64,000 bases of DNA from a virus. Below are positions 6,783 to 41,586 of the stretch, one piece after another. Location of the stretch: positions 1 to 64,000 of the IMG/VR virus record IMGVR_UViG_3300020182_000022; one strand, written 5' to 3'. How positions within the stretch are numbered: position 1 is the stretch's first letter; every line of letters begins with the position of its first letter. The notes beneath the pieces were generated by a model, which ran no database searches, was not told where the DNA came from, and saw only the letters and a program-made list of their open reading frames with translations. A program made the translations under genes and the position numbers.

Positions 6783-6789
6783 TATTTAT
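6783..6789 (-). promoter_or_regulatory. Late-type promoter motif ATAAATA
   Basis: Overlaps the upstream stop codon and lies 10 nt before ATG 6772. Confidence 0.45.
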
Positions 6790-20648: not shown

Positions 20649-22454
20649 TTAACTCTCTATAATTATCTTCTTGTATAGATTGAATGCATCGTGTAAATAT
20701 GGATATTTGTAGTAGGGTAATTTATAGTTTTGGTTCATTATTACTATGTCATTATCATATACAGGGTTCCATATACATAAACTTAACCCAGGTAATGTTA
20801 GTGATAGGTCCGTACGTGAAGTAGATATCGACTCAACACCTTGTATGTTTTGTATTAACGAACCGATTGTGTTTACTTCAATTAATTGTCCTAGCTCCAT
20901 CTTAGTGTTCATAAAATACACAGCTATCGTGTCTGCTACTTCCTGTATAATTGCTGAATCTTCTCTTATGATCCCAGGTGTTTTTTGTATAACTAATTGA
21001 GTGTTATCTGATATCTCCGGTGTTACTACTTCTTGTCCTGTGGTGAGTCCTAAATTAACACCAACAAATACAGGATCCATTAGAACAATCTCTTGGGATA
21101 TCATTTTCTTCTTGTTGATGTCATTTAATATTAGCTCTTTCATTGATGGAGATATAAAGTTAGTCATAACAGATGCAGTTGTTGCTGCTGGCATAGACGG
21201 CACGCAGTATATGTATACATTATTGAATGTAGTTGATGTTGAAACTTGCATGTGATTGAACATCACTCTGCTCTCTTTATTGGGATATGAGATACCTACA
21301 TCCTCGCTGAGATATCTCATATGACCATCGATATAAGTTGTGTTGTCGACAACTTTAGATGATGTCAGTAAATTGCCGTAGCCTCTTTCTATATATGACT
21401 CATAATCGATTGCTGTTACTAGTCGATCTTGATTGGATAGATTTAATGGTGCTTTACGTTTTATTTCATCGACTGTCTCGCGTTGTTGTGGTATGGTACT
21501 GGGTTGAGTATTCGTAAATGACATTGTCTCGATGTTATCAAATGTTATATATTTGATATTTTCGGGTTTGATATCAGTCTTAATGGCATTGAATATATTA
21601 CTACCATAGAGTGTCATCTTGAGCTCATCCAAGAAGTTCGCTCCTACTTGCCCTGCTTCTCCAGTAGACTCAAGATAATACACCCATACTTCGTCTCCTG
21701 AGTTTAACTTAGCGCCAGTGACATCATCACCAAACTTTAATTCATATATTTCATTCTCATTTAACCTTTTCTCAAAAACTCGATCAGTGGGGGTTGCTAA
21801 ATACATTGATGTTGTTTCAGTATACTGGTAATATTTTCCGGAATCAAAGTCCTTAACATACACGTGAATGTGAAAGTGATCTAGTTTTGTTTTCTCTTCT
21901 ATTGTATTTACATACACCGTCTCGAAGTCTTGACCAGTTGATTGTTGACCGGGAAGTTCAACCCATTTACCTTGATATAGTAGATGCTTTTCTCCTATAA
22001 TTGGTATGGGTTCATCACTGGGGGAATTTTTTGTAAATGATATATCAGCGTCGGTTGAGTAGTATGTATCGTTCGAGCTGATGAATGAGTACCTAGGTAT
22101 AGTATATGTACCAGGGATAAGGTCTTCAGTAGCGAATGCATCGAAACTAAGATTACTAGTTTGATACCCGACAGGGTTATAGTTCAACATTTTAACTATA
22201 CGGTTTACGTTTTCATATATAGTAGACTCGGTGAACATACTCTCAGTTGATGTTCTGTTGAGATAATATAGTAATGTATGGAAGCTATATGCAATCACAT
22301 CAATAAACGATGACATGTTACTACCTCTGTATACCTGATCTGTGAAGGTTCCTTGTTCTGTTAGTCTGTTTATTATGAAATCTCTAAGACTTGTAGCATC
22401 GAAAGATGTATATGCTTTATCAGGTAAACTATATTCTGTATATTTATCGGTCAT
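20649..22454 (-). CDS. 6: Baseplate wedge subunit (T4 gp6-like)
   Basis: Contains 'FTDQVYRGSNMSSFIDVIAY', 'YELKFGDDVTG' and 'ETVDEIKRKAP...QDRLVTAIDY'. Confidence 0.88.
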   Translation of the reverse strand: MTDKYTEYSLPDKAYTSFDATSLRDFIINRLTEQGTFTDQVYRGSNMSSFIDVIAYSFHTLLYYLNRTSTESMFTESTIYENVNRIVKMLNYNPVGYQTSNLSFDAFATEDLIPGTYTIPRYSFISSNDTYYSTDADISFTKNSPSDEPIPIIGEKHLLYQGKWVELPGQQSTGQDFETVYVNTIEEKTKLDHFHIHVYVKDFDSGKYYQYTETTSMYLATPTDRVFEKRLNENEIYELKFGDDVTGAKLNSGDEVWVYYLESTGEAGQVGANFLDELKMTLYGSNIFNAIKTDIKPENIKYITFDNIETMSFTNTQPSTIPQQRETVDEIKRKAPLNLSNQDRLVTAIDYESYIERGYGNLLTSSKVVDNTTYIDGHMRYLSEDVGISYPNKESRVMFNHMQVSTSTTFNNVYIYCVPSMPAATTASVMTNFISPSMKELILNDINKKKMISQEIVLMDPVFVGVNLGLTTGQEVVTPEISDNTQLVIQKTPGIIREDSAIIQEVADTIAVYFMNTKMELGQLIEVNTIGSLIQNIQGVESISTSRTDLSLTLPGLSLCIWNPVYDNDIVIMNQNYKLPYYKYPYLHDAFNLYKKIIIES

Positions 22455-23630: not shown

Positions 23631-23831
23631 ATGGCAATGAACATTAAAGGACAAGGGATCACATCCAAGAAGGAGAGCCCAAAAGTAACAGCTAAACCAA
23701 CTCGCGCTAAAGATGAAGAAGGTAAGTTTATCGGAGATGATAAATCAACACCAGATATTAACGAAGCATGGGATGGTGGATATGCTCCTAAGAAGAAGAG
23801 CAAAAAGTCTAAGTCCTCTAAGTCTAAGTAA
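23631..23831 (+). CDS. Small basic hypothetical protein
   Basis: 66 aa, Lys-rich, with 'RAKDEEGKFIGDDKSTPDINEAW', a motif seen in small phage proteins. Confidence 0.65.
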   Translation: MAMNIKGQGITSKKESPKVTAKPTRAKDEEGKFIGDDKSTPDINEAWDGGYAPKKKSKKSKSSKSK

Positions 23832-24741
23832 GAGCTAACAAGCAACTAAAGAAGTTAATCTCCGGATCAACCACGAATGTTGATCTGTACAGATGTTCAG
23901 CCACTACTATCAAGTGCTCTGATTTCTTTATATCAGGGGTGTTGGATTCATGTATACAGTTAAACAAGGCTCGTAGTAACTCTACATAATCACCATTGAA
24001 CACATGTTCATTCTCTATAACCTTTTTACGGGCTTTGATTGCTAGTCCTTCCTTGGCGATCTTATATATGTTCTCTACGAACTTATCTTTAACCTTGACT
24101 AGATTGTCAAACTCGATTTTACCATCAATACAATTCTTCTGGATCTCGTTTATACATTTACGTAGATCAGGATAACATGTCTTGACAAATTCATCTAGAC
24201 GGTCGATATCACTTTCCAGTACCGAGATGTTCTCGAGTTTGAGTATCTGCTTGATTCTATCAGAGCATCCTGAGAGTGACGGTGTTAGATCGAATGATTG
24301 GCAGCGGCTCTGTAGAGGTGGTATGATTCTGTGATTGTAATTAGCAGTTAGTATGAATCTAGTCAATCCGGCATGATCTTCCATTGTGTTACGTAGAGCT
24401 CGTTGAGCGTCTAAGCTCAATCCATCAGTCTCATCTAATATAATACATTTGATAGTACCATCAAAGCTTTTGGTCCTTGAGAAATTAGTAACCTTGGTAC
24501 GGATCATGTCTATACCGTTCTCGTCACTAGCATTGATATACAAGTACTGACATTCTAACATTGAGTTGCATATGATCTTAGCTAAGCTAGTTTTGCCTAT
24601 ACCAGCTGATCCAGAGAAGAGTAAGTTAGGAATCTCGCGAGCTTTGTCGAACTTCTCAAAGCATCTCCGGTTGGCGTCACTCAACACCATTGATCCTAGA
24701 TCACTAGGTCTGTATTTCTCGACCCAGAGATTATCAAACAT
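23824..24741 (-). CDS. 44: Clamp loader large subunit (T4 gp44 / RFC-like AAA+)
   Basis: Contains 'LWVEKYRP', Walker A GSAGIGKT, 'INASDENG', Walker B 'ILDETD' and the SRC motif. Confidence 0.95.
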   Translation of the reverse strand: MFDNLWVEKYRPSDLGSMVLSDANRRCFEKFDKAREIPNLLFSGSAGIGKTSLAKIICNSMLECQYLYINASDENGIDMIRTKVTNFSRTKSFDGTIKCIILDETDGLSLDAQRALRNTMEDHAGLTRFILTANYNHRIIPPLQSRCQSFDLTPSLSGCSDRIKQILKLENISVLESDIDRLDEFVKTCYPDLRKCINEIQKNCIDGKIEFDNLVKVKDKFVENIYKIAKEGLAIKARKKVIENEHVFNGDYVELLRALFNCIHESNTPDIKKSEHLIVVAEHLYRSTFVVDPEINFFSCLLALT

Positions 24742-25372
24742 CTTTACCAGCCTCTTTCATCTTGTATAGCATATAATCCTTATCTGATTGCTGTGTTGAT
24801 TGAAGTATAGTATGACAATCGGTATATACCCAGAAAGGGTCACCTTTATCGAGTTTAGGATAAACGCTACGGTCACAATCAGGTAGAGCATGGGATGATG
24901 TTGTGTCACTGCTACCAAATCCTTTATCACCCCGGGCAGTCTCTGTTATCTCGTCAGTAAACTCAAAGATCGGTTGTAACAATGGATATACTACCAATTG
25001 TGCAATCTTATCCCCTGATCGAACACGATATTCCTTGTCAGTACTAAAATTATACAACTTCACACCTAAATCTCCTCGATATCCGTTATCAATAACACCT
25101 AGATGTGGTTGAATGTTGTGCTTGAATCCTAAACCACTTCTAGGCTCGATTCTGAACCAATATCCAGGTGATATATCAGCGACCGTTAGTCCGACTGGTA
25201 TCACTTGACTGCCCATTGGCGGGATAACTTTATTCTCAACTGATACCAGATCATATCCAGAGTCTCCAGTGCCTGGTTCCTTGTTATTTGCAGTGGGTAG
25301 TACAGCATCAGCATGCGTCTTTTTAATTTTAATAACCGGGTCGTGTAGCGGTCTAATTCTCATCGAGCTCAT
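24734..25372 (-). CDS. dut: Trimeric dUTPase with a C-terminal extension
   Basis: Motifs SGYDL, PRSGLG, GVIDNGYRG, GDKIAQL and RGDKGFGSS, followed by about 55 extra residues. Confidence 0.93.
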   Translation of the reverse strand: MSSMRIRPLHDPVIKIKKTHADAVLPTANNKEPGTGDSGYDLVSVENKVIPPMGSQVIPVGLTVADISPGYWFRIEPRSGLGFKHNIQPHLGVIDNGYRGDLGVKLYNFSTDKEYRVRSGDKIAQLVVYPLLQPIFEFTDEITETARGDKGFGSSDTTSSHALPDCDRSVYPKLDKGDPFWVYTDCHTILQSTQQSDKDYMLYKMKEAGKDV

Positions 25373-27336: not shown

Positions 27337-28983
27337 TTATAATGTGTTTGTATTCTTCATGAACAGGTCATTAGTGTCGAATTTTACATCCTTGTAGAAG
27401 AAGGGCTTGACACCCATTATGTTATTTGTGTACGCGCCAGATGAATCAATCCGGTGAGTTACTCGAGTCACGAAATATTGTCCTAGTATTTTCATATCAT
27501 ATTCATTCTCTATATAGTTGTTGTCCCTGTCCAATGATATCCATACTCCAGCTCTCCGAGATGTATCACCTCGAACATCAAACTGTATGGTGTTGCCTAA
27601 TAGAAACGCTGCCAATAAGATTTTGTTTCTAGATTCAGTGAATGACAAGCTGCTATCTGATGTCCAGGAACTACTAACCCGGAAGTTGAAGTTCTCGGCC
27701 CTAGATGTATCAGACAACCAGCTCGTAAACCCATGACCACCGATACCTCCGAATGTATGGTTAATATACAGTCGTTGAAATTGCTCTTGTAAGGTCCTAA
27801 CATTACCGGACGCTAGGTCAACGTTAAATGTTTTAGTTCTCTCATTATATCGGTGTGTGATTACACTGTTTAACATTTCTTGACAGTCAACTCCGTTCAT
27901 CTCGGAGAAAATATAATCATCGATGACTGATAGATCTGGGTAATGATAGTTTATTGCAGCATTCCGGAATTCCTTACCAAATGTCTTTCTTTCTGGCGGT
28001 ATACCAGTCGATATAGCCTCTGACCCGCTACTCAATAGAAAATACTCAGATTGGTATTCTCCTGGGCCAAACCCTCTTTTACTTCTCGCAAAATATTCTG
28101 TTATAGGTAATAATTCCCATCTCTCGGTATATCGTTGTAATCGTAATAAGCACGGTTGATGTTCGTGGTTGGCATCACTGACGTGTCTGTCGAGGATATA
28201 GTTCAAGTCATCAATGGCTTTAAAATTTGAAGGGCTGGTGTAGTGTAGCTTTGGACCTCCGGCGTTCCAGTGATACGAGAACATATTCTTAGTATCACTT
28301 TCTAATAACGAGCTCCGGAGGATATCCTGGACTATCTCACCGGTTGGTTTACCTCTCTGATCATTATTCATTCTAGATACCGGGTACTTCGATAAACCAT
28401 GAGCACCGGTGGATTGGAGGAACTTTGCGGTACTGTAGTATATATTCTTTTCTCGAAGCATCTGGTACCTGTAGTCATGGAAGTATAATTTCTGTTTCTT
28501 ATACATTCGACCTTTTTCAGATATTATATCCTCGCTAGCATATACCGAAAATAAAAACTTCATGGTATGAATCACACTATTTAGGAATGTAGGAATTCCC
28601 TTGTTTATCTCCCCGGAATCTAGATGAGGTTCGAATGTCAATAGTAGTAAGTCTCTACAATCGCTCCTAAACCGATATGGTACGGTAGGAACTCTAGAAC
28701 CATCCGGAGCGTCAGACAACAATACAGATTCAGACCTCTCTATAATATCATCAGGGTTTAGAAACGTAACATTACCTTGATGAAACCAGTCTAATACATT
28801 ATCTTCGATATACAGGTCGTCTATCGATCCTTTTCTAATTTTAATCGCCTGTCCGTCTTGATTTAATAAATATAAACTAAACTTGTATCGCCTGTCATCA
28901 AATTGCTCTATCTTAGCATTATTATCATGATCTAGACCTAGAGCGTTGACCCAACTCTCTATAAACTCAATATTACCTGCCAT
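27337..28983 (-). CDS. Baseplate hub protein (gp27/GpD-like)
   Basis: C-terminal 'IQFDVRGDTSRRAG..ISL...LGQYFVTRVTHRI' is typical of hub proteins. Lies next to gp53. Confidence 0.65.
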   Translation of the reverse strand: MAGNIEFIESWVNALGLDHDNNAKIEQFDDRRYKFSLYLLNQDGQAIKIRKGSIDDLYIEDNVLDWFHQGNVTFLNPDDIIERSESVLLSDAPDGSRVPTVPYRFRSDCRDLLLLTFEPHLDSGEINKGIPTFLNSVIHTMKFLFSVYASEDIISEKGRMYKKQKLYFHDYRYQMLREKNIYYSTAKFLQSTGAHGLSKYPVSRMNNDQRGKPTGEIVQDILRSSLLESDTKNMFSYHWNAGGPKLHYTSPSNFKAIDDLNYILDRHVSDANHEHQPCLLRLQRYTERWELLPITEYFARSKRGFGPGEYQSEYFLLSSGSEAISTGIPPERKTFGKEFRNAAINYHYPDLSVIDDYIFSEMNGVDCQEMLNSVITHRYNERTKTFNVDLASGNVRTLQEQFQRLYINHTFGGIGGHGFTSWLSDTSRAENFNFRVSSSWTSDSSLSFTESRNKILLAAFLLGNTIQFDVRGDTSRRAGVWISLDRDNNYIENEYDMKILGQYFVTRVTHRIDSSGAYTNNIMGVKPFFYKDVKFDTNDLFMKNTNTL

Positions 28984-28984
28984 A

Positions 28985-29365
28985 TTATAGTGTTTTCTTT
29001 ATATCATCGATAATAGTTCTAATCATCGATGGAGTTGGTACCATGAGAGCTGTCCCGGGGGACAGTGGTGTGAATGTATCGTCTATCCTGTTGTAAGCTG
29101 CTATAATCCACCATAAATCTATTCTATTATAAAATTTATACGAAATCAACGTCCATGTTTCATTAGGCTTGGTATTATACTTGGTGTATGTGGAGGGGGA
29201 TATGTTGTCAGGAAAATCGACCCTATTTAGTATATTATAATAAAAGTGCTTAGATCCATGCTGTTTATATACGTTAAATATACGTTCCATTGCGAATGAA
29301 CTATCACTATTTAATTGTAATAATGACTGTACTTCAAATTTATTGTATTTCGTGGGTTCAATCAC
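28985..29365 (-). CDS. 53: Baseplate wedge protein (gp53-like, LysM-like)
   Basis: Contains 'ETWTLISYKFYNRIDLWWIIAAYNRI...L.PGT.L.VP'. Confidence 0.8.
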   Translation of the reverse strand: MIEPTKYNKFEVQSLLQLNSDSSFAMERIFNVYKQHGSKHFYYNILNRVDFPDNISPSTYTKYNTKPNETWTLISYKFYNRIDLWWIIAAYNRIDDTFTPLSPGTALMVPTPSMIRTIIDDIKKTL

Positions 29366-29366
29366 T

Positions 29367-30701
29367 TTAGTATTGGTTGTTGGTTACTTTTATCTTGTCG
29401 CTCATGCTCTCTTTTACCATATGATACATAAAGTTTTGTGTCTCTGAAAATAGCTCTGTAATTGTTATCGTCAACATGTATGCATCCGGGATTACTGTTG
29501 TTATCTTTCGTTTTTGTAATAACCAGTTACTCTCTGACTTACCGTCTGCAGAGCCATCCTCCGCGGAGGTTAAGTATGGAACTGGCATGTCCATCTCTCT
29601 ACGACCACCTACAAAGTCAACCTGCATGTTTGTTATACTTGCATACTTACTATACCATACCCCGGGGATTTTCGCTTCATATATACAGGGCGGATCGATC
29701 AAATCTCTAGTTATTCGATTAGGTGTATTTTGATATGTTAACAGGTAGATGAATTGCCAATTCCGGATGATTTCCGTGAAGCTCTTAGTATTGAATAATG
29801 GGAACTTAACAGTGTATGATCGTTCTCTGCCATCGAATGTGAATCCCTTCGGTTGTTCGATCATCCGGCCAGGGGCCATTACTTTCTTTGCTGAGATATC
29901 GCTTAATGCTTCTGCTGCTATAGATGTTACATCTGTCATGAAGCCTCCTTCAGCGGCCGATCCGAATCCTCCGGATTTTTGTATATATGCATCTTCCATG
30001 TACGGGAATGTGTACTTAAATTTAGTAGGTGTTACTGTATATAGCATAGAGTATGGATTTAGCGGATTAGCATAACCACTATCAGTACCTTCTAACGCTT
30101 TAATTGCTCCGGCTCCAATAGATTCTGTTATCTTTTTATTTATATTCTCTGATATTGTAGTTTTATTTGCAGTGAAGTTACCTTTTTCATCTTTAGCTAG
30201 ACCGGCGAGTAAATTGGCTGCATTAGCGCCCTGTTGAACTAAGCCGGTTCCGGTCTGGACAGCAACACCGACGTTATTCATCACTTGATTTAACATTGGA
30301 TTTGTTAATATTCTATATTCCTTCAACATTAACATTGGTACCTCACGTCGAGAGTGAGTTGGAGATTCTGTCCAGTGGTGTACGTCTCTAATGTTCACAT
30401 GAGTCGATGGACCAGCGGCATCATTCATATGATCTCCTACTGTCGGGTCTCTCGATTCAGAAGCCGGGGACAATCTAGGTGCTGGTCCGTACCCAGCGAT
30501 TTTCCCAGGGGCGCCACCAGACGCGCTTCCTTTTTTTGGTGGTAACATCTTCCAGTAGAATTTTGCCCCGGCCGGGATAAGAGTCTCACCCCAGGCGTTA
30601 CTAGACTCATCAATCTTCGTACGACCTTGTCCTGATGCGTCAGCTGCTTTTTCGGCCGCGGTGTTTGATGTGTTTTTATCTGGTAAGTCTGGATTTGCCA
30701 T
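29367..30701 (-). CDS. Baseplate tail-tube cap/initiator-like protein (gp48-like)
   Basis: Tube-like fold elements 'RSYTVKFPLFN', 'PPCIYEAKIPG', 'ITNMQVDF' and 'LTITITEL'. Sits between tape measure and gp53. Confidence 0.5.
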   Translation of the reverse strand: MANPDLPDKNTSNTAAEKAADASGQGRTKIDESSNAWGETLIPAGAKFYWKMLPPKKGSASGGAPGKIAGYGPAPRLSPASESRDPTVGDHMNDAAGPSTHVNIRDVHHWTESPTHSRREVPMLMLKEYRILTNPMLNQVMNNVGVAVQTGTGLVQQGANAANLLAGLAKDEKGNFTANKTTISENINKKITESIGAGAIKALEGTDSGYANPLNPYSMLYTVTPTKFKYTFPYMEDAYIQKSGGFGSAAEGGFMTDVTSIAAEALSDISAKKVMAPGRMIEQPKGFTFDGRERSYTVKFPLFNTKSFTEIIRNWQFIYLLTYQNTPNRITRDLIDPPCIYEAKIPGVWYSKYASITNMQVDFVGGRREMDMPVPYLTSAEDGSADGKSESNWLLQKRKITTVIPDAYMLTITITELFSETQNFMYHMVKESMSDKIKVTNNQY

Positions 30702-30702
30702 A

Positions 30703-31125
30703 TTAAGAGTCGTTGTGAACGAGTATATCGTTGGCGAAGAAGCATTGAGTGTCTTCTATTGTTAGGTTATATACTTTTTGAGTCATATCGTTATGGATTT
30801 TGTGCATATCCACTATTTTGGTTTGTTCGAGTTCAGAGTTGAGAACTGTCAAACCTACGGCTATTTTATCCGCGCGAAGCCATTCACTATCTACATAAAT
30901 CTTATGATCATGAGTCAATATGATCGACTCACCGGTTTCTACTTGAATGTATATGAAGTCCTTGGATGAAGAGCTTCGGGTGGCTACCACATCACTAGTG
31001 ATGATCTTTTTCTTTTTCACCGCATATGACTTTATGCTCATGTCGACTGATGTCAGGCTCTCTATAATATAGTCTAAGTCGCGTTCTTCTGAATTGACAT
31101 TTATGACTGTAGTTGATGGTAGCAT
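30703..31125 (-). CDS. Stand-alone Hint (intein-like) domain protein (140 aa)
   Basis: Block A-like MLPSTTVI, block B LTHDHKIYV...WLRADKI, blocks F/G VYNLTIEDTQCFFANDILVHN, then only DS-stop. Confidence 0.85.
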   Translation of the reverse strand: MLPSTTVINVNSEERDLDYIIESLTSVDMSIKSYAVKKKKIITSDVVATRSSSSKDFIYIQVETGESIILTHDHKIYVDSEWLRADKIAVGLTVLNSELEQTKIVDMHKIHNDMTQKVYNLTIEDTQCFFANDILVHNDS

Positions 31126-31133
31126 GGTGTATA

Positions 31134-31140
31134 TACTTAT
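31134..31140 (-). promoter_or_regulatory. Late-type promoter motif ATAAGTA
   Basis: 8 nt before the ATG of the Hint gene. The same variant precedes gp19 and gp17. Confidence 0.6.
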
Positions 31141-31144
31141 CAGG

Positions 31145-34100
31145 TTACTTTGATAATCGACCTACTACTCTGTCGCGAAAGTCCATTATACTTGGCTCGG
31201 CAACTGAGTTGTTGACGGTAGTGCTGTTTCCTCCATTGTTAACTACTGTATTACCTTGTTTGTCAATTAAACCAGACTCTGTTAACACTTCCAGTACCTT
31301 AGTATGTATACCTGAGTGCTCGGTCATCAGTTCAACCATTTTATCCATTCGATTGATCATGTCTTTACCAGAGGAATCGGATTTCCCTGGTGTACTTGGT
31401 GATATGTTATCTTCATGTGATCCTATCAGAATATCACCCTTGCTAAATGTCATTGGTTTTTGACCAGGTCTCCATATAAAATCGTTCATTTCTGGTGCTT
31501 CAACTTGAACTGGCTTGGCTGCTCTCATGGCCTTGTGTATACCTACTTTCTCCAAAGCTCGTGCGAATGCTCTACCATCATCTGTCTCAACATCAAGAGC
31601 ATCATACATGAGGTTGTATCCGGCTAGTATATCACTAGTTATTGAATCTTTGTCAGCTAGTGTTGCCCACGGGTATTGGAAGTTGTCGATCTTTAATCCT
31701 TCATCCTTGAGAACTTTTGCGTATTCATTGACCATACTTACCCACCTTTTATGCTCACCCTCTTGGTTCGCGATTTGCATTGCTATGTCACCCATACCAC
31801 CATCCTTGTGAATAAAGTCTTCACCAGCATCCGAAACTGAGTCGTAAATATGCCCATATTCATAACCTTTCGTCATCTTCTTTAAGAAGTCCTTTTCATC
31901 CATCCCTGAAGTCTTGAGCAATGCTTTGTAATCCCCGGATTCAATTAATAGTTCCTTGGTTTTTTCCTCATCACCTTTTCCGTCTACCATGGCTTTCTTC
32001 ATGGAATCGATTAGATCGTTAGTGCGATCAGCTGTGTTATCTCCACCAACTGTATCCTCTATATTCGCGCGAGCTTTGGCTATTGTCTTTTGAGCAGTCT
32101 CGCTCAAACCAGCGACCGAAGCTGTGGCTTTAGTTGCAGCTTCACGTGATTCAGCAGCTTTACCGGATGCCTCTTCTTCTTCAGTACCAAAGAGTAGTTC
32201 GTATCCTGCTTTGGGGAGGAGGTTTTTTGCCTTGCTCTTCAACATGCCAACCAGGTCTATATCGAGTAGTGATGTGATTAAATCTCCAATTGGTTTTATC
32301 AACGTATTGTATACCCATTGACCTACATCTAGCATCCAGTCTGGAAGGAGTTCCGTAAAACCTACACTAGGATCAGCAAAGTCTGTAAACCATTTTGCAA
32401 TTGGGGCTATAACCTCGTCAAATACCCATCCCCCTATACCGGTCATCCATTTTGGTAACATCTCTAAAAACGCAGATTTTGATCCTTTTGGGTCCTTAGT
32501 AATGTCAGAGAATATATCCATCAGTGGTTGTATTGTGTTGTTATACACCCATTTTCCGGTATCTTTCAACCACTGTGGAATCAATGCAGATAGTATTTCT
32601 GATGCGCTTGTAGAGTTGAGTAGTTTGTCGAAATATTGTGATATTGGTAGTATTAATGAATCAAATACCCAATCACCAAACCCAGACATCCATTTTGGTA
32701 ATAGTTTTTTGAATGCTGCTTTTGCCGCCACTGGGTTGTCTGCTGTAGCTGTAAGCAACTTAGCGACAGGTGCTATAAGTGTGTCCCATACCCAAGTTCC
32801 AAAGTCTGTCATCCATTTTGGTAATAACTCTTTGATTGTTCCTATTGGGTCAGCAAACAACTTGTCAAACCACTTTCCTATCTTCTCAAACGCCTTTTTT
32901 GGCTCTGTGAACAGTGACTTGACGAATTCGAATGCACCCTCCATAAATCCGAATATAGCCCCGATCAGATCCTCATAAATCTTGGCGAAAGACCAACTAT
33001 CTAGTGATTTCTCTGCATTCTCGAATCCAAATGCACCCAGAAGCCAACTTACTGTATCCTTTATCAGATCTAACGGTAGGGTTAATATTTTATAAACGAA
33101 AACCAGCGCTTTCTCGACCATTCCCTTTTCATCCGCCTCTCCTGTGGAGGTGAATATACCTATAAATGAATCCCATATGCCTGTGAGTACACTAGTGATC
33201 TTGGCAAATATATCCTTGTATGTCTTAAAGAGACCACCAATCATATCACTAATCAAGGTGCTAAAACTGAATGCGTCCAATGTCTTCTCTGCTTCTTTGA
33301 ACCCAAACTTGCCGAGGATCCAACTAACCGCTGATTTTAACATATCCAACGGCATGGCGATCAAAGTATCAAACACCTTTGTGATTCCACCTTCTATTCC
33401 ATCTATAATCGATCCTTCTTTTTCGTAACCATCCATAAACCCGGTCACAAAGTCAAACACACCCATTATGATGGTGATAGGTAGAAATATCTTACCTAGC
33501 ATACCACCAAGCCCCTTGAAAAATGCTGTCATTCCTTTTATCACAGGATTCTTCAGTATTATGTTCATCAAGCGAGTGAACAACCCAGGCTTTGTAGCGC
33601 CACCGAATATAGGACTCAATAAAGACTTGATACTCTTACCAATATTCTTGATCTTTGTGCCTATATTTTTGAGTGTGTCTGTGACTGGTTTGAAAAACTT
33701 CTTGACACTTTTCCATAAATTACTAATTCGGGTTTTGAACTTATCGAAGAATGATGTTATAGGTTTAAATAGTTTTGCTAACGGTCCTCCTACTTTCTTT
33801 TTTAGAAATTCCTTCAGAGATATAAACCACTTCTGTTTTCCAATCTCTTCAAAGAATGCAAACAAAGCGATTATAGGTCCAATAATCAATGCGAAAGCGC
33901 CGTATCCTATCATTTTTAGTGCCTTCAACCAACTAGGAGCTTTGTCTTTAGGTGCTTCAGTGTCCTTAGTGACCCTATCAGTTATGTTATTTGACACCAC
34001 TTCACCTAACTGCTTCAACGCTTTGCTATCAAAGTTAACCACTGATACTGGCATTACATCTTTGAGTATTTTTCGAGAGGCTTTCTTCTCTTTATTGTTC

Positions 34101-34291
34101 TTCGCGTTTTCTTTGGCGATATCTTTAGCTAACTCCTTGTTCTCCTTAGCTGATACCTGCTCTTCTGTAGGTGCGAACATGTCATCCGGGTTGAACCTAG
34201 CCTTTGATGTGACCTCACCAGTAGGTTTGTCATCAAGCTTTTCGACCAGCTCAGTTAGAGCGGTAATTAAATCTCCTAGTTTATCTTCCAT
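31145..34291 (-). CDS. Tape measure-like protein (1048 aa)
   Basis: Long amphipathic helical protein with hydrophobic segments and repeats 'LLPxWMxxxGxWV(F/W/Y)xxxIxP'. Located in the tail/baseplate operon. Confidence 0.75.
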   Translation of the reverse strand: MEDKLGDLITALTELVEKLDDKPTGEVTSKARFNPDDMFAPTEEQVSAKENKELAKDIAKENAKNNKEKKASRKILKDVMPVSVVNFDSKALKQLGEVVSNNITDRVTKDTEAPKDKAPSWLKALKMIGYGAFALIIGPIIALFAFFEEIGKQKWFISLKEFLKKKVGGPLAKLFKPITSFFDKFKTRISNLWKSVKKFFKPVTDTLKNIGTKIKNIGKSIKSLLSPIFGGATKPGLFTRLMNIILKNPVIKGMTAFFKGLGGMLGKIFLPITIIMGVFDFVTGFMDGYEKEGSIIDGIEGGITKVFDTLIAMPLDMLKSAVSWILGKFGFKEAEKTLDAFSFSTLISDMIGGLFKTYKDIFAKITSVLTGIWDSFIGIFTSTGEADEKGMVEKALVFVYKILTLPLDLIKDTVSWLLGAFGFENAEKSLDSWSFAKIYEDLIGAIFGFMEGAFEFVKSLFTEPKKAFEKIGKWFDKLFADPIGTIKELLPKWMTDFGTWVWDTLIAPVAKLLTATADNPVAAKAAFKKLLPKWMSGFGDWVFDSLILPISQYFDKLLNSTSASEILSALIPQWLKDTGKWVYNNTIQPLMDIFSDITKDPKGSKSAFLEMLPKWMTGIGGWVFDEVIAPIAKWFTDFADPSVGFTELLPDWMLDVGQWVYNTLIKPIGDLITSLLDIDLVGMLKSKAKNLLPKAGYELLFGTEEEEASGKAAESREAATKATASVAGLSETAQKTIAKARANIEDTVGGDNTADRTNDLIDSMKKAMVDGKGDEEKTKELLIESGDYKALLKTSGMDEKDFLKKMTKGYEYGHIYDSVSDAGEDFIHKDGGMGDIAMQIANQEGEHKRWVSMVNEYAKVLKDEGLKIDNFQYPWATLADKDSITSDILAGYNLMYDALDVETDDGRAFARALEKVGIHKAMRAAKPVQVEAPEMNDFIWRPGQKPMTFSKGDILIGSHEDNISPSTPGKSDSSGKDMINRMDKMVELMTEHSGIHTKVLEVLTESGLIDKQGNTVVNNGGNSTTVNNSVAEPSIMDFRDRVVGRLSK

Positions 34292-34321: not shown

Positions 34322-35107
34322 CTATTCAGTGGTGAATAGGCTAGCGTCTATACTAATGGACACTCCTTCTGGTAGAGATTCTGGAGTCAGGCATGCTATT
34401 TCAAATTTACGGGTTTGTTTAACAAGGGCTGCTAATTTGTTACTGACTTGCATAGGCAGGGATTCAAATACATTTACCATGTCTGATATATTGACATCAA
34501 CTCCTGGAGTGACTACATCTTCACCTATGATTATCGCCTGTATATACTTGACCAACTCAGATACATATATATCTCCAATCACATCCGTGACTTTTAATTT
34601 TTCTTTTGATTTTGGCTTTTGAACTTTCTTTGTGAATTGCTTGTTGTACTTGGTGTCTGTAGCTATATCAGGTACATGACATGTGATCTTGATGATATCA
34701 TGCTCAATCTCGAGGTTATCGGAAATTGATGCATCAAGTGATTTACAAGTAGCAATATGTTCACTCAAGTTGATCTCATGAGTAGTGTCATCCTCTTCAA
34801 TCTTAAGTGTACCACCGATCGCATGTTCTCTCAATTGTAACACGATTAAAGGTTTATCAGTCGTTAGTATTCGAACACTCTGCTTACAATTAGTTGATAT
34901 GATACTGTTGATAGCGTTCATGAACGACAAGTTTTCAAAGTCTGTATCAACGCTGCTGGATAGTAACAGCTTCTGTTGCTTGACTGTTAGTGGTGCAAAT
35001 GGCACATCATTACCAACACTCGGTACATATACACTCAGTGTGTCTTTATTGTTGAGCTCGTTAATACTAGCTAAAAGATTCTTATATGAACTATTGTTTG
35101 ACATCAT
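34322..35107 (-). CDS. Baseplate hub assembly protein (gp26/gp51-like)
   Basis: 'VYVPSVG..VPFAPLTVKQQKLLL' and 'D..LIVLQLREHAIG' match the T4-like gp26 pattern. Confidence 0.7.
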   Translation of the reverse strand: MMSNNSSYKNLLASINELNNKDTLSVYVPSVGNDVPFAPLTVKQQKLLLSSSVDTDFENLSFMNAINSIISTNCKQSVRILTTDKPLIVLQLREHAIGGTLKIEEDDTTHEINLSEHIATCKSLDASISDNLEIEHDIIKITCHVPDIATDTKYNKQFTKKVQKPKSKEKLKVTDVIGDIYVSELVKYIQAIIIGEDVVTPGVDVNISDMVNVFESLPMQVSNKLAALVKQTRKFEIACLTPESLPEGVSISIDASLFTTE

Positions 35108-35139: not shown

Positions 35140-36033
35140 CTACATACCTGGCATCATCGGTGAGGCTCCTACTGTACCACCTTGTGCTCGTTCAGCTTTC
35201 TCGCGGGCCTTTTCTTCCTCCTTACGTTCACGCTTGTAAAACTGTAGATATGTTTGAATTTCAGCTGGTGTTGATGTTTCTATCTGATCTCCAGGTAAGT
35301 TTATATGCTTAGCCATAAAGTATCTATAGTAGTACTCTGCTTCCAAGTTGGAGTTGTATATAACCTTCAGTAATTCGAACATGCTGTTGTTATACAAGTT
35401 TAATGTTATAACCGTTGGTGGGTCCTGGCCATATTTTATCACATCGAGCTGATAGTTCTGGTCTATCTCTTTGATCTTCCGGATTATATGCGTAGTTACA
35501 TCACTAGATATGTTGTCGATCAGTGATTGTTGTTGTTTCTGGTCAAATTGTGAGAAGTTAAATGTCTTCCCGGTGATGTGAATAGTGTCTATAACACTAG
35601 TGATCAGATTGTCAGTTGATGCTTCGTATATTGTAGATGGAGTGGCTAATTTAATTTTTATATCGTCGCTGATCTCTAGAAGATGTGTATACTCGAAGTC
35701 AAAGTTGGTTACCTTGTCAAGTATATCATATAGGTCTATCTTGAGCTTACTTATTTGCTGGTCCTTTGGAGTTATCTCTAGTACATTTGAGACGCACACG
35801 ATATATAGATTGATCAGTATACAAAAACTATCAATCCGAGAGATTTTAGCGGGTATCACTTTCTTTCCTGATAACCGATATATAATATCATTGAAGTGTG
35901 TTAGTAGTTGATCGTTATCGGAGTTTGATATTATCTTTACTATATCAAGGTAGTCTCTGTTGGTTATTTCACTAAAGTTATAGTACCTTTGTTTGGATGG
36001 CAGGTATACCTTGAATTTAAACGCGGTACTCAC
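35140..36033 (-). CDS. Second gp26/gp51-like baseplate hub assembly protein
   Basis: N-terminus 'VYLPSKQRYYNFSEITNRDY' parallels the adjacent gene. C-terminus 'MAKHINL...IE..TPAEIQTYL' is gp51-like. Confidence 0.55.
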   Translation of the reverse strand: MSTAFKFKVYLPSKQRYYNFSEITNRDYLDIVKIISNSDNDQLLTHFNDIIYRLSGKKVIPAKISRIDSFCILINLYIVCVSNVLEITPKDQQISKLKIDLYDILDKVTNFDFEYTHLLEISDDIKIKLATPSTIYEASTDNLITSVIDTIHITGKTFNFSQFDQKQQQSLIDNISSDVTTHIIRKIKEIDQNYQLDVIKYGQDPPTVITLNLYNNSMFELLKVIYNSNLEAEYYYRYFMAKHINLPGDQIETSTPAEIQTYLQFYKRERKEEEKAREKAERAQGGTVGASPMMPGM

Positions 36034-37773: not shown

Positions 37774-40700
37774 TTAGGACACTAATTCACTGAAGTCTTG
37801 ACCGGTTCTAGTAGCATAAAAGTTAACTAGAATGAATTCCGCAGCGCGTGTAGGTTTGATGTAGATGTCTATGACAAGCTCATTGCGGTCAATAACATCT
37901 GGTGAATTGTTTCGTTCGTCGCAAACGAGCAAGTAATCGTACATACCTTGTGTGTTCTTTACCTCCTCGAAGATTGGACGAAGAACGTTTAGTACTTGTG
38001 TCCGTGTGAATAATGTGTTCGGTTCGAATACGAAGTATTTAACTGTATTCATTGTAGCCTTTTGTAGGTATAAGAACAACCTTCTAACGTTGATACGATC
38101 GAAAGCACTTGGTTTAGCTTGCATGGTCTTTTGACCGAAGATTGCAAATCCTTCATTAGGAAAGTTAGCAACTGGATTCAATCCAATTTTGTATAACTGA
38201 TCTCTTTCCTTCTGTTTTGGATAAAACGCAAGGTCTTGAATACCACTCACTAAGCCTCTTGTGAAACCTGCAGGTGCGATCCATGGATAGAAGTTACTAT
38301 CTGTATTACCCATTGCGGCGGCAGCGAATCCACTCATCGGTACCCAAACGCCACGGTTAAGTGCTTTATCGTTTGTGAATCCCCAGTTAGCGTAAGTACA
38401 GCAATAACTACTGTTCTTAGTACCACCGGTCATCATGTGACGCAACGGCCAGTAAATGTGTTGTGAGAAGTTTACTCCGGATTCACGTTGCTGGCTTGTG
38501 AGAGTTTTACTATTTCTACCTTGAACAAAAATGTATCTCAATGGATCAGCGATAAAGATATTGTCTTTTCTTGCGAATTGACTGAAACTCTTGAATGTAT
38601 CGAAGATTGTGTCGTATTGTGTCAAGTAATTGATTTCACTTCTGTTATCAATCAGCTTGGTTGTATACAATCCACTTCCGCTCAATCCGGTGCTGCTAAC
38701 TACATGATCTCCAATGTTGAAGAACTCTTCATCATCAAAGCTCTCAACTGTACCACCATCTGTACCGACATAAACTGTACCTAAACCGCTCTCAATTGTG
38801 ATATCAATCGGGAATAGATCAAAATTGTCTGCTAGTTCGAAGATACGATCCAATTTAGCTGGGATATTACCAGTTTCTTTAGCTGCAGCAGCTTGCTTGC
38901 GATACACACCGTGAGGATACACATTATTACCGTGCTTGATTTGAGCTTTTCTAGAAGCTTGCAAGTCTTGCCAGGATTTGATGTATAGTCGGTCTTCTTT
39001 TTCTTCATTTCCGTTGAGGAACGCTTGAGCTACCTTAAAGTCGTTAACTTCTTGAGTTGTATCTAATTTTTGATCTGATGTTAATTCATCGTAGTAACTT
39101 ACTGATTTAGCTGGAAGTACTCTGATCTTACGGGTCGGATAACCATTCTCGTCTAACCAATTTCCGGCATCTTTAGAGATACCTTCATTGAATTTCATGT
39201 AAAGGTTGTTACTATTACTAGCTTCACTCTCGATGAAGTAACTAGTAGCTGTACCGCCTGTGGATTTGAATGCTTCTCTAAAGTAATTAACACTACCAAT
39301 AACACTATCAGCAACGAGATAATCGAGCTTAGTAGCATCAGGTTCGAGTGTTGATTGACGTACTTTAAATACAGCGAGTGTTAACACATCACTGAACTCA
39401 TCAGTATTGAGGTCGAATTCACTCAAGTTTTCTAGAGCTTCACTCATACTACCATCTAATCCTACTTGTTGTTTATTTCCGTATTGATCGAAGATAAATC
39501 CAGCACTAAGTGAGAAAGTTAAACGGCTTTTAACACCTGTATCAGGTACATTAACATACCCGCCAGTTGTTCCGCCTAGCTTTTTACTTAGCGATTTCAA
39601 TTGTCCTACTGAATCAAAGTCTGTAGCAGGGTTCAAGTTAGTATTATCTGAAATACCGATGTAATAGCCTTCAAATTTCTCATTGAGAACAAATTTCTTG
39701 TCATTCACAATCATCATTCCTGCACCACCTTTTGTGAGTAAGTCATTGTAGGTTGTGAATTTTTGATTTTCTAGTTTACCAGCATTTGCTTGGCTAAGCT
39801 TTACTTCACCCTTGATGGTCTTCTGAAAATCATCGTTTGATAATTCGATGTTACTAGGCTCACCTAGATAATAACGATCACTAGCACTCAAGTCCCATCC
39901 AACACTATTAACAGCGTCTGCAACTATGTCTGCAACATCTGCGATTTCATACGCATTTAAGGCTGGTATACTCAATGGGTTACCAGCCTCTGTTTCCGAC
40001 CAGTATAGATTATCCTGTGAATAAGCGCTTACAGAGGGTATAGATGCGATGACGCTATCAACTGCGTCTTTAAGAGTTGTCCCGACGTAACCTCCTGGAT
40101 TAGTATCACCGAACTTCCACGCACTAGCTGGTACAACTTTTGTACTTAATCCAGAAGCAATACCTCCGGTGATGGTATAACTTTGATCACTCGATACCGA
40201 GTCATCGGCTTCAACTCCTTCAAGACCACCACCAAAAACTAAATTATCAGAGGTTATTAAATCTCCACCTGACACCACTTGCACTTGTTCATCAGGACTA
40301 GCGGTTAAATTATGAGCGGCGACTCTTTGTGTGAGTGTTCCAGGCAATGAACCTCCATCAAGTACAAGAGTACCAGCTGCCGGTACGACTCCATGTCCTC
40401 CGATAACCGCGATATGGATTCCAGATACAGGTTGGTTATCAGGACCGTTATGGTCGTTTACTATTTCCTGGAGCGTCTTGATACCGTCTGCTTCGACAGA
40501 TATTGTTTCGACGAATTCATCAGTCACAAGCCACAAATTATAAGCATCATTTGATTTATATTCTGCTTGCACACCATCTATCGATTGTAGTACGATACTA
40601 TTACCGGCGAACCCGGGGGTTACTACTTCAACAATCATGTCTTCATTGATAGGTGTGTTGTTGTAACCAAAAGTGGTAGCTCTAACAGCTGGTGTGTCTT

Positions 40701-41586
40701 CTAATCCACCAGTTGCAGAGAGGTATGCTGAGAAGTTTTGGTTGATACGATTTACTATATCCTTGCCGGTTAAACGGGCTGCGGTAGCACCTATTCCAAA
40801 CCCGGAGATAGGATCATAAATTGTTTCATTCTCCGGTTGGCTTGTGTATATATCTATATTCGTATTATTTAATTCTGTACCGGGAGTAACTGCAACAACA
40901 CTTATGGTTGAACCAATGTTAACAGAAGCTGGTTTTGCGATAACGAAGTCTCCATCCTCTCCCCCTTTAAAAGTTATTTTTGTACCGGATTCTAATACAA
41001 CATCTTGCCCAGATGTGAAGGTCACGTCTAATCCGGTCAGGACTTGTGATACTGACGATACACCATTAGCAGTAACTGAATAATTACTCTCAGCACCAGG
41101 GTTGTTAGCTGTAACACTTACACCTTTTTCAGGATTAGAGTAACTGCCGGCTTTCTTTCCGCTAGTATCGTTAGCACTCTTTGGGTGCCAAGCGATGATT
41201 CTTTCGTCTTTCTCGACTGAGTTGATCTCCGGGGCGGCTCCATCAACGATAATAGGACGAGGAATTACAGGATAAACTTGAACACTATATTTGTCTGCTA
41301 CCGTCGCTCCGGCTCCTTGACCGTATGGTAATCTAGATACCAGGACGTTTGCAGGGCTTTGGAATACAGCCTTGACAGAATGATACATGTATCGCTCTGC
41401 AGCGTTTTGTGGGAGGCCATAAATTTGTTCGAATTCGCTCAAGCTGGACACCGTGAGTAACTCATCGGTTGGTCCTTGATTCGCGAAACCGGGTATAAAC
41501 ACTGTTGTGCCTACGGGTAAATTAGGTCGTAAAGAAAGATCTACTTCCTTTATTTCTACTCCAGGGGATTGTATTGTTCTTGCCAT
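37774..41586 (-). CDS. 18: Contractile tail sheath protein (T4 gp18-like) with large insertions (1270 aa)
   Basis: N-terminal 'SPGVEIKEVDLS' and C-terminal 'PWIAPAGFTRG...GQKT...SAFDRINVRRLF...FEPN...CDERNN...IDIYIKPTRAAEFI'. Confidence 0.95.
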   Translation of the reverse strand: MARTIQSPGVEIKEVDLSLRPNLPVGTTVFIPGFANQGPTDELLTVSSLSEFEQIYGLPQNAAERYMYHSVKAVFQSPANVLVSRLPYGQGAGATVADKYSVQVYPVIPRPIIVDGAAPEINSVEKDERIIAWHPKSANDTSGKKAGSYSNPEKGVSVTANNPGAESNYSVTANGVSSVSQVLTGLDVTFTSGQDVVLESGTKITFKGGEDGDFVIAKPASVNIGSTISVVAVTPGTELNNTNIDIYTSQPENETIYDPISGFGIGATAARLTGKDIVNRINQNFSAYLSATGGLEDTPAVRATTFGYNNTPINEDMIVEVVTPGFAGNSIVLQSIDGVQAEYKSNDAYNLWLVTDEFVETISVEADGIKTLQEIVNDHNGPDNQPVSGIHIAVIGGHGVVPAAGTLVLDGGSLPGTLTQRVAAHNLTASPDEQVQVVSGGDLITSDNLVFGGGLEGVEADDSVSSDQSYTITGGIASGLSTKVVPASAWKFGDTNPGGYVGTTLKDAVDSVIASIPSVSAYSQDNLYWSETEAGNPLSIPALNAYEIADVADIVADAVNSVGWDLSASDRYYLGEPSNIELSNDDFQKTIKGEVKLSQANAGKLENQKFTTYNDLLTKGGAGMMIVNDKKFVLNEKFEGYYIGISDNTNLNPATDFDSVGQLKSLSKKLGGTTGGYVNVPDTGVKSRLTFSLSAGFIFDQYGNKQQVGLDGSMSEALENLSEFDLNTDEFSDVLTLAVFKVRQSTLEPDATKLDYLVADSVIGSVNYFREAFKSTGGTATSYFIESEASNSNNLYMKFNEGISKDAGNWLDENGYPTRKIRVLPAKSVSYYDELTSDQKLDTTQEVNDFKVAQAFLNGNEEKEDRLYIKSWQDLQASRKAQIKHGNNVYPHGVYRKQAAAAKETGNIPAKLDRIFELADNFDLFPIDITIESGLGTVYVGTDGGTVESFDDEEFFNIGDHVVSSTGLSGSGLYTTKLIDNRSEINYLTQYDTIFDTFKSFSQFARKDNIFIADPLRYIFVQGRNSKTLTSQQRESGVNFSQHIYWPLRHMMTGGTKNSSYCCTYANWGFTNDKALNRGVWVPMSGFAAAAMGNTDSNFYPWIAPAGFTRGLVSGIQDLAFYPKQKERDQLYKIGLNPVANFPNEGFAIFGQKTMQAKPSAFDRINVRRLFLYLQKATMNTVKYFVFEPNTLFTRTQVLNVLRPIFEEVKNTQGMYDYLLVCDERNNSPDVIDRNELVIDIYIKPTRAAEFILVNFYATRTGQDFSELVS

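Follow-up and report, generated by a model that had tools for sequence, protein, structure and literature searches.

A free-standing, splicing-incompetent Hint gene between the tape measure and baseplate genes of an uncultured marine myovirus

The window analyzed here is a stretch of 64,000 nucleotides (nt), positions 1 to 64,000 of the IMG/VR virus record IMGVR_UViG_3300020182_000022, which has 82,261 bases and an estimated completeness of 39%. Between the tape measure gene and a conserved gene for a 444-amino-acid (444-aa) protein, it carries an open reading frame (ORF) of 140 codons that is, by sequence and structural model, a complete mini-intein-type Hint domain. The gene, its conserved blocks and its two neighbors are as follows.

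30703-31125, minus strand: free-standing Hint gene of the mini-intein type, 140 aa plus stop, ATG start
31102-31125, minus strand: block A equivalent MLPSTTVI; the start Met occupies intein position 1 (alignment A2 and profile)
30904-30915, minus strand: block B, T71-H72-D73-H74 (THDH; alignment A2)
30712-30774, minus strand: blocks F and G, VYNLTIEDTQCFFANDILVHN, with His137-Asn138 at the end (NCBIfam intein_Cterm, residues 117-138)
30703-30711, minus strand: tail Asp139-Ser140 and TAA stop (from the sequence)
31134-31140, minus strand: late-promoter-like motif ATAAGTA, with an 8-nt gap to the Hint ATG (motif scan)
30699-30705, minus strand: TAA-T-ATG, junction between the Hint stop and the start codon of the 444-aa gene; also a recombination breakpoint
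31145-34291, minus strand: tape measure gene, 1048 aa (phrog_58, 1535, 305, 4197 and 5493)
29367-30701, minus strand: conserved 444-aa gene at the T4 gp48 position, fused to Hint in two clusters of relatives

The Hint product begins with MLPSTTVI, has ILTHDHKIY in mid-protein and ends with VYNLTIEDTQCFFANDILVHNDS; His137-Asn138 is followed by Asp, Ser and the TAA stop. Nineteen nucleotides separate the tape measure TAA from the Hint ATG. The Hint frame is +1 relative to that of the tape measure and contains TAG TAG at 12 codons before the ATG. The ORF of the 444-aa protein starts within TAA-T-ATG, in frame +1 relative to Hint, a junction that suggests translational coupling. An earlier reading of the letters without database searches (here, the sequence-only reading) had described MLPSTTVI, THDH, HN-Asp-Ser, the frames and the TAG TAG, and all of these statements hold; it named no strand for the gene. 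The ATAAGTA that it had proposed as the gene's own late-type motif, 8 nt before the ATG, was found again by the motif scan. Furthermore, frames, stops and independent assemblies agree with its view that the gene is free-standing and a fragment of neither neighboring gene.

The identical 140-aa protein (P0001) is recorded on 32 contigs, and near-identical proteins occur on others. Loci L001, L045 and L046 are 99% identical and have the same junctions. Contigs from two further DNA runs span 30696-32300 and 29300-30725, and no insertion or deletion was reported inside the Hint ORF in any of the four sequencing runs compared. These data refute the reading of the ORF as an assembly error or mis-called frame of a single contig, for which nothing was found in favor and to which we assign a negligible probability. 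Two contigs from metatranscriptome libraries also lie on the Hint ORF (30696-31027 and 30696-32300), which is not proof of transcription. Of 24 public runs listed, all of them marine or aquatic metagenomes and from 10 studies, 20 contain the stretch or a part of it, and two of these may be its source.

Profile searches and structure prediction, the first check that the sequence-only reading had proposed, matched Hint families and predicted a Hint fold with high confidence. The protein passed the cut-offs of Pfam PT-HINT (PF07591; 42.0 bits versus a gathering cut-off of 27.7), NCBIfam intein_Nterm (30.9 versus 24.5) and NCBIfam intein_Cterm (24.7 versus 15.6). It fell slightly short of Pfam Intein_splicing (34.6 bits versus 35.8) and was under the cut-off of Pfam Hint (PF01079; 19.4 versus 29.7). 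The AlphaFold2 (AF2) model, built with a 25-row alignment, had a mean predicted local distance difference test score (pLDDT) of 95.6 and a predicted template modeling score (pTM) of 0.88. Foldseek returned 69 matches in the Protein Data Bank (PDB) at E ≤ 0.001, and all those listed were BIL, intein or Hedgehog Hint structures. BIL2 structures (6tmm and 6y75) occupied ranks 1 to 4 (TMq 0.84-0.88), and the Clostridium thermocellum BIL 2lwy matched with a TMq of 0.87 and a root mean square deviation of 1.7 Å. Other matches were the DnaB, RecA and NrdJ-1 mini-inteins; for these and BIL2 together, TM was 0.83-0.88. The structural scores of BIL domains and mini-inteins are almost equal, and closeness to BIL is not discriminating. 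When the family profile was compared with solved sequences, the nearest was the marine NrdJ-1 intein (E = 6.2e-16); from its position 3 on, the profile aligns with residue 6-11 of solved inteins.

Of five features by which an intein is recognized, two are present, the Hint fold with blocks A, B, F and G and the C-terminal His-Asn, and three are absent: exteins, a nucleophile at position 1, and Cys, Ser or Thr at position +1. Because the protein has no N-extein, Met instead of a nucleophile at position 1 and Asp at +1, its anatomy excludes splicing, and the term "splicing-incompetent" used in the sequence-only reading is borne out at the level of sequence. In class-3 inteins, a Cys at block-F position 4 substitutes for the position-1 nucleophile, together with Trp and Thr. 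Membership in this class was rejected: the Cys of the window protein is off block-F position 4, and Val, not Thr, stands before His-Asn. The residue at the VY-x-L place is Asn.

A word-indexed search retrieved 28 proteins (from 38 candidates) with 57-100% identity and lengths of 112-144 aa, 24 of them exactly 140 aa long. When 299 candidates were screened for longer forms among close relatives, none was found at E ≤ 1e-8. HMMER was used to scan 1.84 billion cluster representatives and gave 484 matches at E ≤ 0.001, mostly ordinary inteins in long proteins. Among the matches listed (150 of 484), at least 22 representatives of 50% identity clusters, 138-150 aa long, align end to end. They partly overlap the close homologues, and short matches such as P0141, P0156 and P0173 were left out. 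Down to 26% identity, the deeper clusters retain a full-length ORF and the positions that define the fold; they also keep the FAN..L core of blocks F/G. In alignment A2, Met occupies Hint position 1 in 24 of 25 rows (the exception, P0029, has a one-residue shift), Thr71 of block B is present in 25/25 and His74 in 18/25. A tree placed 27 free-standing and 2 fused rows apart from six intein segments with 98/97 support. Thus, what the sequence-only reading had named as grounds for giving up its proposal did not materialize: homologues are mostly stand-alone, the fold is predicted, and there is no assembly frameshift.

We then considered selection. Among six loci with 71-100% identity, the ratio of nonsynonymous to synonymous substitution rates (dN/dS) was 0.036-0.174 in 12 of 15 pairs; the other three pairs were saturated at synonymous sites. 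Therefore, the Hint protein is under purifying selection, and related phages keep a stand-alone Hint at this locus, the second check proposed in the sequence-only reading. Since the stand-alone ORF is conserved under purifying selection, "domesticated", as that reading had called it, is a fair word. In summary, the family consists of extein-less Hint proteins of about 140 aa and is restricted to a single uncultured marine lineage of T4-like myoviruses. The window protein has the defining features: a length within 138-150 aa, Met at Hint position 1, and a single Hint domain making up the whole protein.

Searches against GenBank phages gave no match for window positions 29000-32000 (megablast) or for the 444-aa protein (tblastn), and tblastn with Hint gave only a 25-residue block-G match to the NrdA intein of Yersinia phage TG1. 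Therefore, no cultured relative is at hand. A profile scan of genome contigs with alignment A1 yielded three loci with partial matches to ordinary inteins and no family member, and P0058 and P0044, used as single queries, found no related locus.

The gene order around Hint was compared by tblastn of five window proteins against 14 related loci. Besides Hint, the tape measure and the 444-aa protein, the five proteins include the products of the next two genes.

28985-29365, minus strand: LysM-like baseplate gene, 126 aa (phrog_7145 baseplate wedge subunit, E = 1.2e-8)
27337-28983, minus strand: conserved gene of the same module, 548 aa, 25-91% identity in each of the 13 related loci whose contigs extend that far

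The order tape measure - Hint - 444 aa - LysM - 548 aa was found in L126, L128, L129, L130 and L053; the contigs of L047, L049 and L050 show the same order over the part that they cover. The LysM-like gene is syntenic in all related loci. In the window and 11 other loci, Hint lies between a late motif and the 444-aa gene. In all 12, ATAA[A/G]TA is located 5-10 nt before the ATG of Hint position 1, and the downstream ATG is found at -11 to +5 nt relative to the first nucleotide of the Hint stop codon and has no late motif of its own. Where Hint is missing, in L127, L132 and L134, the late motif immediately precedes the 444-aa-type gene. We conclude that Hint fills the exact slot between the 444-aa gene and its promoter. 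Ten loci were reached via the 444-aa protein: four have Hint, five lack it (L127, with 50% identity, and L132-L135, with 27-30%), and L131 is cut. In the tree of the 548-aa protein, L127 belongs to the same radiation, within which its position is not resolved, and that tree does not give the order of gain and loss.

The motif is not confined to Hint. On the minus strand of the window, ATAAGTA or ATAAATA is found 3-19 nt before the ATG in 13 motif-ORF pairs, and the genes preceded by it include those for the tape measure, sheath, tube and terminase as well as large downstream ORFs. ATAA[A/G]TA with such a very short leader presumably corresponds to a T4-type late promoter, and from its placement it looks like a phage late promoter that gives almost leaderless messages. 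Minus-strand motif sites were recorded at 6789, 9722, 11536, 15222, 22964, 34308, 35117, 37771, 41612, 43982 and 47913. As a separate observation, L048 has an additional in-frame ATG (positions 68-76 of that locus) three codons before the ATG of Hint position 1, giving a 143-aa protein (P0015, MHTMLPSTT...). This ATG is probably not used, because it lies just 1 nt past the late motif.

Two clusters of relatives differ from all of these loci in carrying Hint and the downstream protein in one polypeptide. P0034 (565 aa) and P0061 (615 aa) consist of an in-frame Hint and a homologue 52% identical to the 444-aa protein of the window. At the junction, a Met-started Hint runs to ...ILVHN and continues with TSVQSL... 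or AGTTRTT... (HN/T and HN/A). The clusters have 5 and 9 members from ENA, JGI, Tara and Logan, and the fusion junction was the same in 8/8 further full-length members read. Since junctions are shared across members and sources, the fusions are real. A locus search with fused P0034 as query returned only a window-like contig.

The fused proteins raise the question of whether the window gene is also joined to a neighbor, by a frameshift or stop read-through that would link Hint to the tape measure or the 444-aa protein and make it a true intein or a cleavable domain. Such recoding could draw on the +1 relation at both window junctions, on the single in-frame TAG between the tape measure and the Hint frame in L047-L049, and on the Thr that a +1 shift past His-Asn would place next, in addition to the existence of the fused relatives. 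However, among the loci the Hint frame is +1, 0 or -1 relative to the tape measure and +1 or +2 relative to the downstream gene, and these varying relations indicate separate genes that are not recoded. The late motif, a start codon ATG for Hint position 1 and a downstream ATG at the stop are present in each locus; Met1 is no nucleophile; L051 has an extra in-frame TAA between the tape measure stop and Hint; and TCT-TAA-T appears to offer no obvious slippery pairing. We regard recoding as very improbable.

Next, we analyzed the residues on which any remaining chemistry would depend. Cyclization of the terminal Asn is the sole intein reaction that the residues of the free Hint would still permit. 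Of 27 free-standing rows, 17 retain His-Asn (15 of 25 in A2) and 10 have lost it. All 17 HN-keeping free rows have a tail of at least two residues after His-Asn, which is exactly two residues long in 11 of the 15 HN-keeping A2 rows, and Cys128 is present in 16 of these 17 free rows. Among the 10 HN-less rows, one has such a tail and two have the Cys; most stop where the fold stops. In 12 deep HN-keeping rows, conservation is 100% at His108, His137 and Asn138, 92% at Cys128, and 83% at both Gln127 and Asp73, compared with a column mean of 0.51. The +1 residue of HN-keeping family members is D, G, A, E, I or H. The His codons differ among loci (CAC/CAT), which places the constraint on the protein.

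The sequence-only reading had considered the block-F His of the window protein to be replaced. A residue other than His is indeed present there, but this is less unusual than that reading suggested, since all 15 bona fide viral inteins inspected (picked from 124 loci) read T[E/H]CFFAN, followed further on by HN and then Cys; ordinary inteins can thus have both the Cys and a residue other than His in this place. The pattern T[E/H]CFFAN..L[VI]HN-Cys was found in L002, L004-L006, L009, L010, L012, L016, L020, L030, L032, L056, L062, L082 and L084. The block-F "QC" was therefore inherited from the parent intein group, and viral inteins with T[E/H]CFFAN are likely to be the parent stock of the free-standing Hint family.

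We read the residue pattern as selection on a C-terminal center that would still work in the subtype of the window, and as decay in the other subtype. Since Gln-Cys, His-Asn and a short tail are conserved in the window's subtype, self-cleavage that removes Asp-Ser is plausible, and the Asn cyclization chemistry may survive in the window's Hint. A more specific proposal is that in HN-keeping free Hint proteins Asn138 cyclizes and expels the two-residue tail, and that the succinimide or a conformational change is then used. This we consider unlikely. If it were true, the use could be covalent or irreversible docking onto a tail or baseplate protein, or a one-shot timing switch; an intein active site would have been reused for a purpose beyond splicing or flank release, and the fused relatives would represent naturally occurring "N-terminal intein tags", which free a protein of the baseplate module by Asn cyclization.

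The same residues could alternatively belong to a maturation enzyme acting in trans, with Cys128, His137 and His108 cleaving or modifying a tail protein, such as the C terminus of the tape measure. This is one of three roles that the sequence-only reading had offered; the other two, a structural virion component and a module for Asn cyclization alone, are likewise conjectural. C-terminal processing of tape measure proteins occurs in several phages, and Hint travels with the tape measure in L126, where Hint is 99% and the tape measure 97% identical to the window and the 444-aa gene only 70%. Cys128, His108, His137 and Asn138 are also 92-100% conserved in the HN-keeping subtype. Nevertheless, no trans-acting protease is known to us among Hint domains, the Cys is an inheritance from ordinary viral inteins (T[E/H]CFFAN in 15/15), the residues are lost in 10/27 rows, and the tape measure C terminus is as conserved in Hint-less L127 as in loci with Hint. 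Such an enzyme is distinctly unlikely.

Judging from the fusions and the constant location, the partner of Hint would be either the 444-aa protein or the tape measure. The downstream gene had been called gp48-like in the sequence-only reading, a name that we do not retain: it rests on position and a weak lead from the ESM Atlas, and comparisons with families and profiles gave nothing. Pfam, PHROGs and NCBIfam assigned no family to the 444-aa protein (Pfam matched none of nine members), the PF11091 (gp48) profile had no match in the virus record, and hhalign gave probabilities of 0.4% against T4 gp48 and 0.1% against T4 gp54. The 444-aa profile found nothing meaningful among PDB sequences, the best match being a flavodoxin with an E value of 0.76. 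The sole gp48 lead comes from Atlas clusters in which 14-33% of members carry PF11091. An AF2 model of the protein had a pLDDT of 46.4, too poor for a fold search. Prediction of a complex between Hint and the 444-aa protein gave a score of 0.00 and a mark of 0.32, which is neither for nor against binding.

Our best reading is that Hint is a former module of the 444-aa gene which is now a separate late protein. Since the free Hint is under purifying selection, it has a function of its own, and the role that we would favor is that of an accessory to the 444-aa protein or the tape measure during tail or baseplate assembly. With moderate confidence, we favor an intein-derived, splicing-dead tail/baseplate accessory protein whose Asn cyclization chemistry is vestigial or reused. 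The most likely history would have three steps. A marine-phage intein of the NrdJ-1/gp41-1 kind would have entered the 5' end of the 444-aa gene. Loss of its tiny N-extein and of the nucleophile would have left an N-terminal module that frees the host protein by Asn cyclization alone; the corresponding architecture (M-Hint-HN/T... and M-Hint-HN/A...) is seen in the fused clusters. In the lineage of the window, the module and the 444-aa protein would have become two cistrons, transcribed from the Hint motif and probably translationally coupled.

Several observations weigh against this reading. The best tree nests the fused pair among the free-standing forms, as if the free form came first and the fused form later; a tree with all free forms in one clade was not rejected (AU test, p = 0.44), and either direction, fusion or fission, would fit. 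The fixed place was seen in 12 loci, and about 16 deeper clusters are represented by protein sequences only, as are the HN-less and the fused clusters. Hint is absent from some relatives (L127 and the distant L132-L135) and hence dispensable there. The association of HN with Cys128 and the tail amounts to four independent contrasts, one of them on supported branches, and significance is unreachable. The loss of His-Asn from 10 of 27 free rows, together with the missing block-B His in 7 of 25 A2 rows, means that catalysis cannot be the common function of the family. Finally, the identities in L126 given above and those in L049, where identity to the window is 71% for Hint and 90% for the 444-aa gene, show that Hint recombines independently of the 444-aa gene, which argues against tight co-adaptation with the variable N terminus of that protein. 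This N terminus occurs in two alternative types, MANPDL... and M..PPEIFPGGTTDG....

Some of these observations could be explained by a decaying selfish remnant, a dead and functionless intein that persists since imprecise deletion between the promoter and the coupled gene would be lethal. Its absence from L127 and L132-L135, the catalytic residues lost in 10/27 free rows, the position exactly between the late motif and the downstream ATG, and the coincidence of the junction with a recombination breakpoint are in line with this explanation. However, a spacer alone would not preserve an amino acid sequence, and dN/dS is 0.036-0.174, the ORF of 138-150 aa is full-length in 22 clusters down to 26% identity, and the Hint model reaches a pLDDT of 95.6. 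Useless DNA is, moreover, generally lost fast from phage genomes. We therefore consider a remnant rather unlikely, and retain the accessory protein as the favored reading. The breakpoint itself was noted with L126, L047, L049 and L050 and is seen in contigs of other DNA runs, which end or branch at the Hint/444-aa junction (30696-30725). The Hint gene is a marker of the recombination seam between the tape measure and baseplate modules of an abundant uncultured marine myovirus group.

Among known systems, the window Hint is closest by sequence to the mini- and split inteins of marine phages of the NrdJ-1/gp41-1 kind (metagenomic "fractured genes", PMC2677866). It shares with them the fold (TM 0.88 to 8ubs and 0.79 to 6qaz), the habitat, and blocks A, B, F and G, including ...FFANDILVHN. 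Those inteins are embedded in or split across host genes, have Cys, Ser or Thr nucleophiles at positions 1 and +1, and splice. The window Hint, in contrast, starts with Met1, lacks an N-extein, carries Asp at +1 and ends two residues after His-Asn. BIL domains, the top structural matches (6tmm and 6y75, BIL2 from the Tetrahymena BUBL locus; 2lwy from C. thermocellum), are Hint domains that serve cleavage instead of splicing, and they often lack a nucleophile at +1. They are internal in larger proteins and process their own flanks; the window Hint stands alone and begins at residue 1, and the fused relatives would fit the BIL definition better than it does. PT-HINT (PF07591), the best Pfam match, lies upstream of C-terminal toxin modules in polymorphic toxins according to its Pfam description. 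PT-HINT domains release these modules; in the window, only two residues follow the domain and there is no toxin module. Hedgehog/Hog Hint proteins have Cys1 and a C-terminal sterol- or adduct-recognition region, in contrast to Met1 and the lack of an extra region here.

Engineered C-terminal-cleaving mini-intein tags, e.g., Cys1-to-Ala derivatives of DnaB or gp41-1 (PMC12245125), have the same architecture as the fused relatives: an N-terminal intein, no position-1 nucleophile, and Asn cyclization as the only possible reaction. Such tags are laboratory constructs, the fused relatives are natural, and the lineage of the window encodes the cargo separately. A purely functional analogy exists to the S74 self-cleaving intramolecular chaperone domains of phage tail fibers and spikes, which are released after aiding assembly and, as far as the cited passage goes, are never free-standing (PMC7824862). 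Their fold and Ser-Lys chemistry are unrelated to Hint, and they are C-terminal.

Full-text searches of an open-access library found no description of free-standing Hint or intein genes or of Hint domains in the tape measure or baseplate module; the two papers found there that pair "Hint domain" with baseplate concern ordinary inteins. In the ESM Atlas, several viral clusters of Hint-only proteins of 141-282 aa were noted as a lead only, and small viral Hint proteins may therefore be more common than the literature suggests. The fixed slot, the Hint-less relatives, the fused clusters and the partial loss of His-Asn are new here, the last three having escaped the sequence-only reading. Inteins are usually seen as selfish inserts that survive by clean splicing, and a Hint family that has no host protein, cannot splice and is under strong purifying selection at one place in a phage tail operon offers a testable example of an intein recruited to a new function. 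One lineage presents three states together: no Hint, a fused Hint and a separate Hint. C-terminal-cleaving purification tags find a natural counterpart in the fused forms, and His-Asn with a dipeptide tail in the free forms raises the question of whether the tail is removed, and why.

Further upstream on the same strand lie genes for a terminase, a 1270-aa sheath protein, two tube-like proteins and two phrog_150 "baseplate hub" paralogues. The sheath gene (37774-41586, minus strand, 1270 aa) matches the PHROG sheath family only in residues 1053-1268, and its approximately 1000 N-terminal residues are unmatched. The two phrog_150 genes (34322-35107 and 35140-36033, minus strand; 261 and 297 aa) are adjacent and paralogue-like and immediately precede the tape measure gene; their location would suit a tail assembly chaperone pair or gp26/gp28-like hub parts. 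On the other side of Hint, dUTPase and clamp-loader genes (23824-25372, minus strand) lie inside the baseplate run, between a 429-aa gene and a gp6-like wedge gene (20649-22454).

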